NCBI GenBank assembly: GCA_030295235.1 | Contig: AP026123.1 | Span: forward strand, 1,240,001 to 1,304,000 | From: Fistulifera solaris | Taxonomy: Eukaryota | DNA length: 64,000 nucleotides | Direction: 5' to 3' | The notes under the pieces: model-generated | Database searches by the model: none | What the model was told of the DNA's origin: nothing | The model's input: only the letters and a program-made list of their open reading frames with translations | Shown here: piece after piece, positions 11,842 through 59,108 of the stretch | Layout: each line of letters opens with the position of its first letter | Position numbering within the stretch: position 1 is the first letter of the stretch | Made by a program: the position numbers and the translations under genes

Positions 11842-13453
11842 TTAGAAGCACTTTCGGTGCACGATGGAAGGACCAGACTCGTCGTATTCTTCCTTGCTGA
11901 TCCACATGCTCTGGAAAGTAGAGAGAGACGCCAAAATGGAACCTCCGATCCACACGGAGTATTTGCGTTCCGGAGGAGCCACAATCTTGACCTTGATCGA
12001 AGCAGGAGCCAAAGCAGTGATCTCCTTCGACATACGCTCGCTGATACCGGGGAACATGGTGGTACCTCCGGAAAGAACAATGTTGGCGTACAAGTCCTTG
12101 CGGATATCGACATCGCACTTCATGATGGTCTGGAAGGTGGAGTCGGCAATACCGTCCATTTCAAGACCCGTCAAGTTGGGCTGGAACAACACCTCCGGAC
12201 AACGGAAGCGCTCGTTACCGATCACGATGATGTTACCATCGGGAAGCTCGAAGGATTTCTCAAGAGCAGAAGACTCGGCAGCCTTCTTCATCTCTTCCTC
12301 AAAGTCAACAGCAACGAAGCACAAGGACTCCTTGATATCACGAACAATTTCTCGCTCGGCGGTGGTGGTGAGAGAGTAACCACGCTCGGTCAAGATCTTC
12401 ATCAAGTAGTCGGTCAAGTCACGTCCAGCAAGATCCAAACGGATCACAGCGTGGGGAAGAGCGTAACCCTCGTAGATGGGAACGGTGTGGGTGACACCAT
12501 CACCAGAGTCCAAAACGCAACCGGTGGTACGTCCAGAGGCGTAAAGGGACAAGACGGCCTGGATGTTCACATACATGGCAGGGACGTTGAATGTCTCGAA
12601 CATGATCTGGGTCATACGTTCGCGGTTGGCCTTGGGGTTCTGAGGAGCCTCGGTCAACAGAACAGGGTGGGCCTCGGGGGCGACACGGAGCTCATTGTAG
12701 AAGGTGTGGTGCCAGATCTTCTCCATGTCGTCCCAGTTGGTAACAATACCGTGCTCGATGGGGTATTTGAGCGTGAGAACACCTCGCTTGGCCTGGGCTT
12801 CGTCACCCACATAGGCATCACGTTGTTCCATACCAACCTACAAGCGCAAGACGAAGCAAAGGCGAAAGGCAAGAAGAGAAGTAAAAGAAGAGGGATAGCG
12901 TTAGACGTCGTTCAAATTCAAAGGGTGACACAGCTCTCGACAAATAGAAGAGCCACCGTCACCGTCGACGACTCACCATGATACCGGGCTGACGGGCACG
13001 ACCGATCAAAGAAGGGAAAACGGAGCGAGGGGCGTCATCTCCGGCGAAACCGGCTGTTGGAAGTCAAATAAAAGGTAGAAGAGGAAGAGAGGCAAAGTTA
13101 GAGAAGGTTTGCAAGTTTGTACGACGCATTGAATGTCGAAATGACCGCGTCATGCAAATGTCTTTTCGTCGCTCGTCAACAGTCAACGCGTTCCGTCTTT
13201 TTCGATGAAAGAAGCGTGAAATGACAGCAGCAGATCATTGCTGTCGACACAAATTGAAAGATGAAGGCTTATCGAGACAAGTCTTCACCCTTCAAAGATT
13301 GCGATCGCGTAGAAAAGCCGCCAGTCACCCAAAGACAGCTCACACAGACAACTGGTCGCAATTCGAAGCGACTTCGGCCGCTTTTGACTTACCTTTGCAC
13401 ATTCCAGAACCGTTGTCAACGACAAGGGCGGCAATATCTTCGTCATCAGCCAT
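11842..13453 (-). CDS. ACT: Actin, copy 1 (exons 13393-13453, 12977-13053, 11842-12837; 377 aa)
   Basis: [20 protein letters not shown] through [10 protein letters not shown]; canonical GT-AG introns give a 1134-nt CDS. Confidence 0.99.
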
Positions 13454-18183: not shown

Positions 18184-19795
18184 ATGGCTGATGACGAAGA
18201 TATTGCCGCCCTTGTCGTTGACAACGGTTCTGGAATGTGCAAAGGTAAGTCAAAAGCGGCCGAAGTCGCTTCGAATTGCGACCAGTTGTCTGTGTGAGCT
18301 GTCTTTGGGTGACTGGCGGCTTTTCTACGCGATCGCAATCTTTGAAGGGTGAAGACTTGTCTCGATAAGCCTTCATCTTTCAATTTGTGTCGACAGCAAT
18401 GATCTGCTGCTGTCATTTCACGCTTCTTTCATCGAAAAAGACGGAACGCGTTGACTGTTGACGAGCGACGAAAAGACATTTGCATGACGCGGTCATTTCG
18501 ACATTCAATGCGTCGTACAAACTTGCAAACCTTCTCTAACTTTGCCTCTCTTCCTCTTCTACCTTTTATTTGACTTCCAACAGCCGGTTTCGCCGGAGAT
18601 GACGCCCCTCGCTCCGTTTTCCCTTCTTTGATCGGTCGTGCCCGTCAGCCCGGTATCATGGTGAGTCGTCGACGGTGACGGTGGCTCTTCTATTTGTCGA
18701 GAGCTGTGTCACCCTTTGAATTTGAACGACGTCTAACGCTATCCCTCTTCTTTTACTTCTCTTCTTGCCTTTCGCCTTTGCTTCGTCTTGCGCTTGTAGG
18801 TTGGTATGGAACAACGTGATGCCTATGTGGGTGACGAAGCCCAGGCCAAGCGAGGTGTTCTCACGCTCAAATACCCCATCGAGCACGGTATTGTTACCAA
18901 CTGGGACGACATGGAGAAGATCTGGCACCACACCTTCTACAATGAGCTCCGTGTCGCCCCCGAGGCCCACCCTGTTCTGTTGACCGAGGCTCCTCAGAAC
19001 CCCAAGGCCAACCGCGAACGTATGACCCAGATCATGTTCGAGACATTCAACGTCCCTGCCATGTATGTGAACATCCAGGCCGTCTTGTCCCTTTACGCCT
19101 CTGGACGTACCACTGGTTGCGTGTTGGACTCTGGTGATGGTGTCACCCACACCGTTCCCATCTACGAGGGTTACGCACTTCCCCACGCCGTGATCCGTTT
19201 GGATCTTGCTGGACGTGACTTGACCGACTACTTGATGAAGATCTTGACCGAGCGTGGTTACTCTCTCACCACCACCGCCGAGCGAGAAATTGTTCGTGAT
19301 ATCAAGGAGTCCTTGTGCTTCGTTGCTGTTGACTTCGAGGAAGAAATGAAGAAGGCTGCCGAGTCTTCTGCTCTTGAGAAGTCCTTCGAGCTTCCCGATG
19401 GTAACATCATCGTGATCGGTAACGAGCGCTTCCGTTGTCCGGAGGTGTTGTTCCAGCCCAACTTGACGGGTCTTGAAATGGACGGTATTGCCGACTCCAC
19501 CTTCCAGACCATCATGAAGTGCGATGTCGATATCCGCAAGGACTTGTACGCCAACATTGTTCTTTCCGGAGGTACCACCATGTTCCCCGGTATCAGCGAG
19601 CGTATGTCGAAGGAGATCACTGCTTTGGCTCCTGCTTCGATCAAGGTCAAGATTGTGGCTCCTCCGGAGCGCAAATACTCCGTGTGGATCGGAGGTTCCA
19701 TTTTGGCGTCTCTTTCTACTTTCCAAAGCATGTGGATCAGCAAGGAAGAATACGACGAGTCTGGTCCTTCCATCGTGCACCGAAAGTGCTTCTAA
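18184..19795 (+). CDS. ACT: Actin, copy 2 (exons 18184-18244, 18584-18660, 18800-19795; 377 aa)
   Basis: Same protein as copy 1; canonical GT-AG introns 18245-18583 and 18661-18799. Confidence 0.99.
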
Positions 19796-55782: not shown

Positions 55783-56351
55783 GTTGATCTTGTTGACGAG
55801 GGCAGGACGCTGTTCGGGTTACTTGTGGTAAAAAAGTGAGATTAAACAATGAGAATGTGGATCATCGCATGTTGTGCGTGTGTGTTCTTTGTGTTGCGTC
55901 GATCGTTGCGGTTCATTTTTGTTTCGGAACAACAAAATTCCTCCTCGGTATCCGGCGGAAGATATGAGTACCGGTTTCACTGTTCATCCCCAGAGTCACG
56001 CCATATAGGTAGACCAGTAATTGACAGTTAAATTTGAAATGTAATTAAAGACCACTTGCAAACACTACACATTGAACGGAAACGACTTGCAATAAACTAA
56101 CTCTAAAACATATAGTTTATAAGCACCGGTTATTGAATGCTAGGCACGAAAACTGTTCACGTTCAAAGGCAAAAAGGTGTTTGCGTGTTGAGTTGTTGAT
56201 ATTTATTTGTGATTTGACATGTTTGCAGTTTACGCTATTGTCAAGCTTTCATGATAATACCCCCGAAAACAGTCCGCGCATTCATATGAAGATTCTAAGG
56301 AACTTACCGAGGACCAAGAAATTGGAAGGTATCTTCGACGTACAAAGGAAA

Positions 56352-57341
56352 ATGAATCCTTCTTTTCTATCGCTCTTGGTTCTAGCAACATCGTCTCTGG
56401 CGTTCTTCGCTTTGAACGTATATCAACTGAGTGCTTGGAATGCTTCATCTCGGGCGATAAGATCATCACAACAAGTAGAAACGAGTAGGATCATTCATCA
56501 TGTGCCGATCCAAATGCGGAGAAAAACACGGGGCAGACTCGTTCAACCCGGAGATTTCATTTATTACAAAGATGACAGACGATGGGATTCGGCGCCCATT
56601 GTCATCGAATCCCATAAATTGGTCTTTTTTACCATTCCCAAGGTCGGCTGCACGGTTTGGAAACAACTATTTCGTCGCATGGAAGGATATTCCGATTGGC
56701 AGGATCAAGACGGAGAGCGTCTGTTGCCGCACAACCCGAACGAAAATGGTTTGAAGTATCTGTACGATTATCCCATTGATAAGGCTAATGAAATCATGAC
56801 CAGTCCCAAGTGGACCAAGGCAATGATGGTGCGCGAACCGAAGCAGCGATTTCTGAGTGCCTTTCTCGATAAAGCAGTCAGCAACGATCACGCTCACATT
56901 ATGGGCAAATGCTGTCAGTTTATGGAAGATCCCCAGCAATGCGTTGATTCGGCGCAAACAGCGTCTGGATTTTTGAATTTGATTAAAACGTGTGAGGATG
57001 ATCATTGGAGAGCTCAGAACGATCGAGTGGACTACAAATATTGGCCTTACATTGACATGGTGTTGCATGTCGAGAAGGCGGAGGAGGATGCGAAAAGACT
57101 GTTACAGAAAATCGGAGCATGGGATGAGTTTGGTCAAACTGGATGGTCTAAAGATCATCAGAGTCCTATATTTGGCAACGCTGCTAAAAGTGCCGGCGAT
57201 CACGCAACCTGGTCGCAGTGGCAGGTATGGAAATGGTACACGCCCGAGGTGGAACGTCAAGTGGAAGCGTTTTACCGAGCGGATTACGAAAATCCGCTCT
57301 TCAATTTCACCACATACGAGTGCTTCACCTGTGTTAAATAA
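56352..57341 (+). CDS. Carbohydrate sulfotransferase (Sulfotransfer_2 family), paralog of 37423-38586
   Basis: Signal anchor, FFTIPKVGCTVWK, VREPKQRFLSAFLDK, DHWRAQ. Confidence 0.9.
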   Translation: MNPSFLSLLVLATSSLAFFALNVYQLSAWNASSRAIRSSQQVETSRIIHHVPIQMRRKTRGRLVQPGDFIYYKDDRRWDSAPIVIESHKLVFFTIPKVGCTVWKQLFRRMEGYSDWQDQDGERLLPHNPNENGLKYLYDYPIDKANEIMTSPKWTKAMMVREPKQRFLSAFLDKAVSNDHAHIMGKCCQFMEDPQQCVDSAQTASGFLNLIKTCEDDHWRAQNDRVDYKYWPYIDMVLHVEKAEEDAKRLLQKIGAWDEFGQTGWSKDHQSPIFGNAAKSAGDHATWSQWQVWKWYTPEVERQVEAFYRADYENPLFNFTTYECFTCVK

Positions 57342-57475
57342 TTAGTTAAAGTCATTTGTTGTTTCGATCAACTTCACATTCATTTGGTGAACCATGGGGG
57401 CTCTAGAAATTGTATACTTGTACTGGACAAGAACTACTGGTAACACGGAGAAAGTTAGCTCGTGTCAGTCTATCA

Positions 57476-57484
57476 ATATATATC
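57476..57484 (+). promoter_or_regulatory. TATA-like element upstream of the permuted tRNA gene
   Basis: ATATATATC about 20-25 nt upstream of the leader helix start (~57503). Confidence 0.4.
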
Positions 57485-57515
57485 TTTATGATCACTTTTT
57501 CAGCATCTCGTATCT

Positions 57516-57595
57516 TTCGAATGGTCACGTGTTCGACTCACGTTTGGCGCTTGTCCGAAGCGTCAATAGCTCAGTGGTAGAGCGTTCGATTGCAG
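57516..57595 (+). tRNA. tRNA-Cys(GCA): Circularly permuted tRNA-Cys(GCA): 3' half 57516-57551, spacer 57552-57559, 5' half 57560-57595
   Basis: 5' half: GCGTCAA TA GCTC AGTGGTA GAGC G TTCGA TTGCAG. 3' half: T TCGAA TGGTC ACGTG TTCGACT CACGT TTGGCGC T. All four stems pair, U73 discriminator is present, junction at 37/38. Confidence 0.93.
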
Positions 57596-57605
57596 GGCGA
57601 TGTCC

Positions 57606-57616
57606 TTTTGCTTTTT
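57606..57616 (+). terminator. Putative RNA polymerase III terminator
   Basis: TTTT-GC-TTTTT just after the tRNA trailer helix. Confidence 0.6.
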
Positions 57617-57758
57617 CGACGTGTTCAGTGCCAGTTGATGTCGCAAAGCTTCCTTTTAGGATTCCATAGACCGTTATACACGGATTGGCGATAGGCAAAA
57701 GTTATCATCTTCTCTTTTCGAAGTCGTCGGAAAATCCAAACAAAATGCTTTGACGACC

Positions 57759-59108
57759 ATGAGATTAAATCGACTTTTTCTTGTCAATCTTGTAGTCATT
57801 GTTGATTTGATCGCTTATTTCTACATCAAAGCTTCCTTTGGAGTCGGTGGTGAAGCTTTAGAAACAGCGCTTGTCAAAACGACTGAGGAGCAAACCGTGT
57901 CGTCGATAGAGTCAACAAACTTGGAAAGAGCCCATGAAAACGCCGTTCGCTCTAGTACCGGATCTGTGAGGAAATTCAAAGAACCATTGTTGCCTCATAA
58001 GGTCACCTATGCCCCGACGGGCGGGAAGCTTCCAGAGGACGGGTTTGACACGTACGACGAGACTGCATGGAATAAACTGGATAACGGAACATGTTTATTC
58101 GACGATGACGAAGAAGATCAAGCATTTGAATGGCAAAGGAACTCTCCGTACGCAATACTGTTAGGCACAATGAAAGGCGGGACACATGCATTGTCAGAAT
58201 ACTTGTGGCAGCATCCGCTGATAGCCGCACCCAAGAAAGTAGAGAAAAATGGCCATGAGCTCCATTTCTTCGACAGCCGCAGCTTTGAGAGAGGAAAAAT
58301 GGGAATTCCGAGAAAAGCCAATCAACTGTCTTACGCTATGAAAGTGCATAAAATGTACCCGGATTTCTTTTACACAAAAGAAAGTATGTATACGATTCAT
58401 GATTCACCACGATACCTGGTTTGGAGTGACCGAATTCCTGAAGCAATCATGTGTGTGACCCCTTGGTCGAAGCTAATCGCCGTTCTCAGGGATCCAGTCG
58501 AACGCGTGATATCGCACTATCGCTTTCAAGATCAAGGTAGGTCTCAAATCTCACGTTTCGTATGTAGTGTTCCGGAACGCATATTAACTCAACCGTTGCT
58601 AGCTCGATTTCGGAAAAACATACCTATGGTAGATTGGGAGACGTGGATACAGGATGACATTGAGCGGTTGAAACGAGCGGGAGTACTTCAAGATTGGAAT
58701 CGAGTAGATTTTGACGAATTTTCGGGCTCGGAAGCTGAACTGATTGCATGGAAGAAATATCTTCGGTCGCCTACCACCCAGATGATTGTTGGCCGTGGGC
58801 TTTACTCGCTGCAAATTGAGCATTATTTTGCGGCTATGGACAAAGTGGGGAAACCTCGGTCAGATTTATTGGTCATTCGGTCAGAGGAACTTCGAGACGA
58901 AACGCAGCTGGTCTACAATCGAGTTATTGACTTTCTTAGCCTTCCTCAACATGTCCTCGACGATACGGAAGCAAAACATGAGACTCAGAAGAGCTCTATT
59001 CCGATTCCAAGTGACTTGCGGAAACAGCTGGAAGAGTTATACAGGCCCTACAACCGGCGACTAAATGAACTTTTGGACTGGAACAACGTTTGGGATTACA
59101 ACAATTAA
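57759..59108 (+). CDS. Sulfotransferase (Sulfotransfer_1; heparan sulfate 3-O/N-sulfotransferase-like); in-frame intron ~58537-58602
   Basis: Signal anchor, ILLGTMKGGTHALSEYL.QHP, ELHFFD, SPRY, LRDPVERVISHY, RGLY, YRPYNRRL. Confidence 0.88.
   Translation: MRLNRLFLVNLVVIVDLIAYFYIKASFGVGGEALETALVKTTEEQTVSSIESTNLERAHENAVRSSTGSVRKFKEPLLPHKVTYAPTGGKLPEDGFDTYDETAWNKLDNGTCLFDDDEEDQAFEWQRNSPYAILLGTMKGGTHALSEYLWQHPLIAAPKKVEKNGHELHFFDSRSFERGKMGIPRKANQLSYAMKVHKMYPDFFYTKESMYTIHDSPRYLVWSDRIPEAIMCVTPWSKLIAVLRDPVERVISHYRFQDQGRSQISRFVCSVPERILTQPLLARFRKNIPMVDWETWIQDDIERLKRAGVLQDWNRVDFDEFSGSEAELIAWKKYLRSPTTQMIVGRGLYSLQIEHYFAAMDKVGKPRSDLLVIRSEELRDETQLVYNRVIDFLSLPQHVLDDTEAKHETQKSSIPIPSDLRKQLEELYRPYNRRLNELLDWNNVWDYNN

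Follow-up and report, generated by a model that had tools for sequence, protein, structure and literature searches.

A Pennate Diatom's Circularly Permuted tRNA-Cys(GCA) Gene and Its Candidate Expression Signals

Introduction

How could a tRNA be made from a gene in which the 3′ half stands upstream of the 5′ half, and which features of the flanking DNA might serve to transcribe and process it? The question is raised by one locus in a 64,000-nt stretch of DNA from Fistulifera solaris, a pennate diatom that abstracts describe as allodiploid. We refer to this stretch, at its full length, as the window. A preliminary description of the locus had proposed a permuted tRNA gene with an upstream TATA element, a relaxed bulge-helix-bulge (BHB) motif formed by leader and trailer, and a terminator made of T runs.

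Permuted tRNA genes are on record from Cyanidioschyzon, four prasinophytes, the Bigelowiella nucleomorph, and Thermofilum pendens (PMC3978253, PMC4033280), as well as from other chlorarachniophyte nucleomorphs (PMC4494063) and from Auxenochlorella (PMC12633428); a 2026 review names, in its accessible portions, only the red and green lineages (PMC13578239). We found no report of a permuted tRNA in a diatom in the accessible literature, and the lineage appears to be new for genes of this kind. A diatom case would widen the distribution of permuted tRNA genes to the nucleus of a secondary-plastid host, and it would give annotators of diatom genomes a concrete pattern to seek.

Results

The halves of a tRNA-Cys(GCA) in reverse order

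Two sulfotransferase-like ORFs on the same strand (56286-57341 and 57759-59108) are separated by 417 nt, and the interval 57476-57616 sits in that gap. Within the interval, a circularly permuted gene for tRNA-Cys(GCA) occupies 57516-57595; it is composed of a 3′ half, an 8-nt intervening sequence, and then a 5′ half (Table 1). When the halves are rearranged (57560-57595 followed by 57516-57551), ARAGORN recognizes a 72-nt tRNA-Cys(gca) that has U73 and forms seven acceptor pairs; the cloverleaf is perfect and carries a GCA anticodon. The 3′ half supplies the 3′ strand of the anticodon stem, a 5-nt variable loop, the T arm, the 3′ strand of the acceptor stem, and the discriminator U73, and the 5′ half supplies the 5′ strand of the acceptor stem, the D arm, the 5′ strand of the anticodon stem, and the loop nucleotides U32 U33 G34 C35 A36 G37. 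CCA is not encoded. A tRNA fold that appears only after the halves are rearranged is what defines a permuted tRNA gene in Soma 2007. A 1149-aa KH-domain ORF of the window finds its best named match in Fistulifera solaris, with 88% identity along its entire length, and many other diatoms come next; the diatom host supposed in the preliminary description therefore holds.

Read in genomic order, the whole 64-kb window yields zero RNA genes with either ARAGORN at default settings or Rfam at gathering thresholds; the permuted order of the halves would explain why standard finders report no tRNA-Cys at this locus. At permissive thresholds, Rfam returns just two matches here, one to YrlA (RF02553; 33.8 bits against a gathering score of 69) and one a tRNA half-match (22.1 bits against a gathering score of 29). 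YrlA is a bacterial Y-RNA-like family whose tRNA-like module has the order T arm, acceptor, D arm, and the match to its model arises because the tRNA-Cys gene has that same permuted order. As to the surroundings, the two flanking ORFs have sulfotransferase domains (Sulfotransfer_2 and Sulfotransfer_1), and the next gene beyond them, on the opposite strand, encodes a bifunctional aspartokinase/homoserine dehydrogenase.

Table 1. Features of the permuted tRNA-Cys locus, in window coordinates
Feature	Position	Strand	Basis and remarks
TATA-like element ATATATAT (TATATAT at 57477-57483)	57476-57483	+	direct reading
T5 run between TATA-like element and leader	57496-57500	+	direct reading; role putative
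Predicted leader	57501-57515	+	outer-helix strand 57503-57509; central strand 57510-57513; 57514-57515 in the 3′ bulge with U38
tRNA-Cys 3′ half, positions 38-73	57516-57551	+	ARAGORN on rearranged halves
B-box-like sequence TGTTCGACTCA (T loop), core GTTCGACTC	57530-57540	+	direct reading
Intervening sequence TGTCCGAA, 8 nt	57552-57559	+	direct reading and ARAGORN
tRNA-Cys 5′ half, positions 1-37	57560-57595	+	direct reading and ARAGORN; alignment of the Rfam tRNA model starts at 57560
A box TAGCTCAGTGG (D arm)	57567-57577	+	direct reading
Trailer	57596-57605	+	G57596 is the third nucleotide of the 5′ bulge (A36 G37 G+1); outer-helix strand 57597-57603, then CC
Presumed Pol III terminator T4-GC-T5	57606-57616	+	T4 at 57606-57609, T5 at 57612-57616; begins at trailer nucleotide +11
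Decayed 3′-half-like relic	57615-57642	+	TTCGA, ACGTGTTC, TTGATGT; downstream of the terminator

Pairing between leader and trailer

Direct reading bears out the pairing proposed in the preliminary description, with every coordinate and count correct. Antiparallel, the leader strand GCATCTC and the trailer strand GCGATGT match at six of seven positions, through five Watson-Crick pairs and one G-U pair (57503/57603), with one U-C mismatch (57508/57598). Nearer the tRNA, GTAT (57510-57513) stands opposite TTGC (57590-57593, tRNA positions 32-35) at three of four positions; the pairs are C35-G, G34-U, and U33-A, and U32 faces U57513. The cuts required to release the halves, 57515/57516 and 57595/57596, each fall inside one 3-nt stretch, CTT (57514-57516) and AGG (57594-57596), just where the two bulges had been proposed. 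The arrangement amounts to a bulge-helix-bulge register placed on the anticodon stem. When leader/trailer pairs were drawn at random from the window and scored for at least three of four central and at least six of seven outer positions, with G-U allowed, 615 of 200,000 reached an equal score. A repeat search of the sequence did not flag the leader-trailer helix, because it contains no exact 6-nt seed.

Compared with the known classes of splicing motif, the pairing corresponds to the BHB-type leader/trailer motif of Soma 2007 in a relaxed form. It falls short of the strict archaeal hBHBh′, which has a 4-bp central helix between two 3-nt bulges, since the central helix here makes three of four pairs. 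Nor does the gene have the canonical eukaryal anticodon-intron pair, which joins position 32 to the nucleotide that stands third before the 3′ cut; the two are U and U, the mismatch that the preliminary description had pointed out. Across the three distinct leaders now available, the nucleotide opposite U32 is U in the window, C in a related metagenomic contig (X2 record 8), and A at the second locus described below (L058), a mismatch in two of the three.

Folding with ViennaRNA, the check that the preliminary description had proposed, upheld one part of the structure and not the other: the pairs of the outer helix have probabilities of 0.81-0.98, and those of the central helix about 0.005. 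Formation of the outer helix lowers the predicted energy from -19.9 to -25.9 kcal/mol, a contribution of -6.0 kcal/mol, and forcing the three central pairs raises it to -23.0 kcal/mol, a cost of +2.9 kcal/mol. By this model, the BHB has a central helix of marginal thermodynamic stability. With the outer helix predicted and the central one not, the secure element is the leader-trailer helix, lying beyond a 7×7 internal loop; that loop can take the BHB register, and "relaxed" seems a fair label for it. Taken whole, the precursor has no folding advantage over its shuffled versions (z = -1.64; 12 of 200 shuffles equal it).

Candidate signals for transcription

The TATATAT element lies approximately 39 nt before the first mature nucleotide of the tRNA-Cys, and the heptamer occurs in the 64-kb window only twice on the plus strand and five times on the minus strand. 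The T5 run that follows the element would stop RNA polymerase III coming from upstream, and the transcript, if Pol III is the polymerase, probably starts at 57501-57505. A start there would be 24-28 nt past the first T of the TATA element and 0-2 nt ahead of the leader-trailer helix, a spacing that is tight and counts against the model. Of all window positions, 0.26% have TATAWAW 25-47 nt upstream, 13% have a T4 run no more than 25 nt beyond the downstream end of an 80-nt body, and 0.024% have both; most of the DNA behind this null is coding, so that it flatters a site between genes.

The sequence TAGCTCAGTGG in the D arm is a perfect A box, and TGTTCGACTCA in the T loop is a B-box-like sequence with its core intact. 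Their order is as first described, the A box lying 37 nt downstream of the B-box-like sequence. A type 2 Pol III promoter, with the A box about 30-60 nt upstream of the B box, is not what is found here. That this order would impair the use of TFIIIC is an argument taken from the literature, where B-then-A is considered unsuited to simultaneous binding by the factor (PMC3978253). The pairing of a TATA-like element within 50 bp upstream with a T-stretch downstream, which Soma 2007 used as a criterion, is present at the locus, in agreement with the preliminary description, and both elements recur at nearly equal offsets at L058.

Conservation in copies and relatives

Contigs from four public runs (X1 to X4) were compared over 57100-58000; none aligned from X4. 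Among the runs listed as containing the stretch, none is recorded as RNA. In X1, records 1, 2, 4, and 5 have the window sequence with 0 differences, and records 3 and 6 represent a second, diverged copy. Record 3 follows the upstream ORF with five differences, replaces the next 163 nt by 138 other letters, and re-aligns at 57507-57544 with two differences, both within 57507-57514; its leader cannot be aligned upstream of 57507. Record 6 aligns over 57566-57625 with six differences, all within 57596-57625, and then skips. Each of the two overlaps the central record 4 (57515-57595, 0 differences) by exactly 30 nt. Since such overlaps in a k=31 graph imply that the interval 57515-57595 is common to both copies and that the nearest differences lie at 57514 and 57596, we infer that the copies are identical throughout it. 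The mature part thus shows 0 differences in 80 positions against 8 in the 38 alignable flank positions (hypergeometric p about 7e-5), which argues that selection or gene conversion acts on the permuted tRNA itself and that leader and trailer are free to change in sequence.

Relatives in X2, a sediment metagenome, extend the comparison. One near-identical contig differs at 57382, 57474, 57475, and 57495 and leaves the TATA element and leader unchanged. In two others the 3′ half still stands upstream of the 5′ one, and the intervening sequence and acceptor stem differ, the former by both substitutions and insertions. Both members of acceptor pair 3-70 have changed (57562 G>A together with 57548 C>T), from G-C to A-U; 57563 T>C turns pair 4-69 from U-G to C-G, and 57564 C>T turns pair 5-68 from C-G to U-G. 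The leader of record 8 ends in ...GGCACTA before position 38, which pairs with positions 33-35 (through A, C, and G) and places C opposite U32. In the trailer, the consensus of the two contigs reaches an agreement of only 0.65, too low to be of use. A contig from X3 shares 57509-57547 and has a different sequence at the outer-helix strand. Maintenance under selection in relatives, another test in Soma 2007, is evident here from the identity of the X1 copies, from the paired change at 3-70 in X2, and from L058.

A second permuted tRNA-Cys in a metagenome

The pattern with which metagenomes were scanned ran from a T arm and discriminator T across a gap to a conserved D arm. It proved too general, returning at least 119 loci with at least 121 pattern matches, at least 29 of them with 7/7 acceptor complementarity; the matches listed are mostly consecutive tRNA genes or short-linker, YrlA-like modules. 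Among the at least 119 loci listed, GCA stands at the anticodon position in L058 alone. This locus holds another permuted tRNA-Cys, laid out like that of the window, and its source organism may not be a diatom; the best named matches of the adjoining rhodanese gene, to MMETSP transcripts, Chaetoceros, and Craspedostauros, are 41-50% identical. The D arm and anticodon arm of L058 are identical to those of the window gene, and its T arm and acceptor stem are different.

The leader-trailer helix recurs at this independent locus. AGAACTC in the leader pairs with GAGTTCT in the trailer at seven of seven positions, in exactly the register of the window and with wholly different sequence. TATATAT stands 44 nt upstream of position 38 (39 nt in the window), and the trailer repeats the order seen in the window: nucleotide +1, a 7-nt helix strand, CC, and then a T run, here T6, from +11. 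The intervening sequence is 28 nt long against 8 nt. The central helix is built differently, in that the leader offers partners (A, A) to U32 and U33 and none to positions 34 and 35; a U-A anticodon-intron pair at position 32 is therefore available in L058.

Other collections gave nothing comparable. Seven loci matched in a viral scan, and all are tRNA arrays, since each matched D arm precedes its own T arm; a Cys-specific form of the pattern had 0 matches in a collection of prokaryote genomes. Two minor observations may be recorded. The 28-nt intervening sequence of L058 (620-647, minus strand) forms a GC-rich hairpin of its own in the minimum free energy structure, and the 8-nt linker of the window does not. 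Several metagenome loci (L003, L015, L059, L065, L075, L111, and others) consist of a T arm, a 7/7 acceptor-like helix that a linker of 1-6 nt closes, and a D arm, with no anticodon arm following; judged by sequence, these look like the YrlA-type permuted tRNA-like modules of bacteria or phages.

A relic downstream of the gene

The segment beyond the terminator resembles a decayed 3′ half. Its element ACGTGTTC (57619-57626) is an exact 8-mer match to the T arm at 57527-57534, its TTGATGT (57635-57641) pairs with the 5′ strand of the acceptor stem at 7/7 positions (two of them G-U), and its spacing of 16 nt compares with 17 nt in the genuine 3′ half. Its local-alignment score is equalled by about 5% of random segments. 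Both ARAGORN at low threshold and the Rfam tRNA model make use of the segment. In the second X1 copy, alignment is lost from 57625 and the relic is not kept. To judge from these resemblances, the segment looks like the scar that would remain after an intron-containing tRNA-Cys gene had duplicated in tandem, the event that Soma 2014 proposes as the origin of permuted genes (PMC3978253). A candidate 5′-half relic upstream of the gene found no support; its local score of 13 is equalled by 27% of random segments.

Discussion

It seems likely to us that this locus is a working, permuted nuclear tRNA-Cys(GCA) gene with its junction at 37/38, and that the features flanking it are its expression signals. 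Every enzymatic step and both transcript ends in the following scheme are modeled on Cyanidioschyzon and the prasinophytes, and the steps follow the published permuted-tRNA pathway, as it is set out in PMC3978253. TFIIIB would bind TATATAT, and RNA polymerase III would start past the T5 run, producing one transcript that comprises leader, 3′ half, intervening sequence, 5′ half, and trailer and that stops in the T4 or T5 run. The tRNA body would then fold, with the intervening loop closing the acceptor stem, and leader and trailer would form the 7-position helix that extends the anticodon arm across the 7×7 internal loop, a loop that could adopt the bulge-helix-bulge register through its three central pairs. 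The tRNA-splicing endonuclease would cut at 57515/57516 and 57595/57596, its position set mainly by the mature domain together with the leader-trailer helix. A tRNA ligase would join G37 to U38 to give an 80-nt circle, from which RNase P and tRNase Z would take out the intervening 8 nt, and CCA would be added.

The gene could instead be functional and yet driven from within, by TFIIIC bound to the B box (and A box), the upstream AT run being incidental or modulatory. Both boxes are intact, the A box perfect and the B-box core GTTCGACTC present, and AT-rich runs are common in intergenic DNA. Dependence on the A and B boxes is, moreover, predominantly conserved in eukaryotes, although the same review considers a B box that precedes the A box, as it does here by 37 nt, unsuited to simultaneous TFIIIC binding (PMC3978253). 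Since TATATAT is also rare in the window and stands at almost the same offset in L058, we think internal control unlikely. A silent pseudogene, left behind when an intron-containing tRNA-Cys gene was duplicated in tandem, would account for the debris that adjoins the gene at 57615-57642. Decay of that sort is hard to reconcile with a perfect cloverleaf that retains U73 and the GCA anticodon, with a second copy that has 0 differences in 57515-57595 against 8 in 38 flank positions, with compensatory changes in the acceptor stems of relatives, and with the matching layout and signals of L058; we regard it as quite improbable.

The same downstream segment invites the suggestion that the gene is conventional after all, running from the 5′ half through an intron of roughly 20 nt to a 3′-half-like segment that ends at 57642. 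The Rfam tRNA model does align across 57560-57642, and ARAGORN at low threshold reports a tRNA-Cys at 57559-57644. That alignment, at 22.1 bits, is below the Rfam gathering score of 29, however, and ARAGORN misses the tRNA at default; the segment is short by about 6-7 nt (the variable loop), its T arm is degenerate, T4 and T5 runs would lie inside the intron, and the second X1 copy loses alignment from 57625. We give this arrangement scarcely any credence. Hardly more plausible is a YrlA-type, Y-RNA-like mimic of a tRNA that takes no part in decoding: YrlA is the best Rfam match and many of the metagenome pattern matches resemble such modules, but 33.8 bits falls well short of the gathering score of 69, the organism is a eukaryote, and rearrangement restores a full anticodon arm with GCA and all the features of a tRNA-Cys.

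Taken as a working permuted gene, the locus has signals that are those expected of a known kind. Type II (37/38) permuted genes for tRNA-Cys(GCA) occur in Ostreococcus lucimarinus, O. tauri, and Micromonas pusilla (Maruyama et al. 2010, tabulated in PMC3978253), and with these prasinophyte genes, as that review presents them, the diatom gene shares its isoacceptor, its junction, an AT-rich upstream region, a relaxed hBH-type leader/trailer motif, and a short intervening sequence that closes the acceptor stem (12-38 nt in the prasinophytes, 8 nt in the diatom). The diatom gene differs in its stramenopile host and in the mismatch at position 32. Cyanidioschyzon supplies the model for transcription, which combines TATA-driven, TFIIIC-independent Pol III with a leader-trailer BHB and a circle opened by RNase P and tRNase Z (PMC3978253), and its genes likewise have a TATA-like element within 50 bp upstream and a T-stretch downstream (PMC3978253, PMC3728597). 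C. merolae has 11 permuted genes with several junction positions and extra introns, whereas the window has one gene, at 37/38 only; the circular intermediate has been shown experimentally in C. merolae (PMC3978253) and is predicted for the window gene.

The comparison with other splicing substrates bears on how the junction might be found. As in a canonical eukaryotic 37/38 intron, the cut sites are placed alike relative to the mature domain, each in a 3-nt stretch, and a helix lies beyond the 5′ site. The "intron" of the window gene differs in being the joined trailer and leader, and its excision therefore circularizes the exons. It differs too at position 32, where the pair is U-U here and U-C in one relative, the proper U-A being found only in L058. 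The two 3-nt bulges around a short central helix recall the strict hBHBh′ of archaea, as in Thermofilum pendens (PMC3218864), except that three of four pairs would leave the central helix of the window unstable alone; in T. pendens, the junctions are at 59/60 and CCA is encoded, unlike the 37/38 junction and absent CCA of the window gene (Chan et al. 2011, PMC3218864). Eukaryal enzymes are described as using the mature domain to measure out the 37/38 sites of relaxed hBH motifs (PMC3978253), and because that domain is intact here, the endonuclease could find the junction by such a ruler mechanism. The preliminary description had suggested that the endonuclease of this organism accepts relaxed BHB substrates. 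Since the junctions of green algae and nucleomorphs are relaxed hBH motifs at 37/38 as well, this is the norm and not a peculiarity, and the suggestion adds little. The one real departure from the known type is the absent position-32 pair. The yeast endonuclease is reported to recognize the anticodon-intron pair at that position (PMC3978253), and the diatom gene would offer a natural test of how far a eukaryal splicing endonuclease depends on it.

We speculate, tentatively and with some doubt, about a wider significance. Diatoms, and perhaps other stramenopiles, could obtain their cytosolic tRNA-Cys only from a permuted gene by way of a circular RNA, which would make theirs the first such host nucleus beyond the red and green algae. 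Such a gene might have come from the algal endosymbiont, prasinophytes having permuted the same tRNA-Cys(GCA), or it might have been re-invented by tandem duplication, with 57615-57642 as the scar. The diatom endonuclease would also cut without the position-32 pair used by other eukaryal enzymes.

Elsewhere in the window are two 329-aa actin ORFs with identical Pfam scores, at 11842-12831 on the minus strand and 18806-19795 on the plus strand, forming an inverted pair about 6 kb apart. Two equal, sub-threshold Rfam matches to mir-3533 are explained by this pair.
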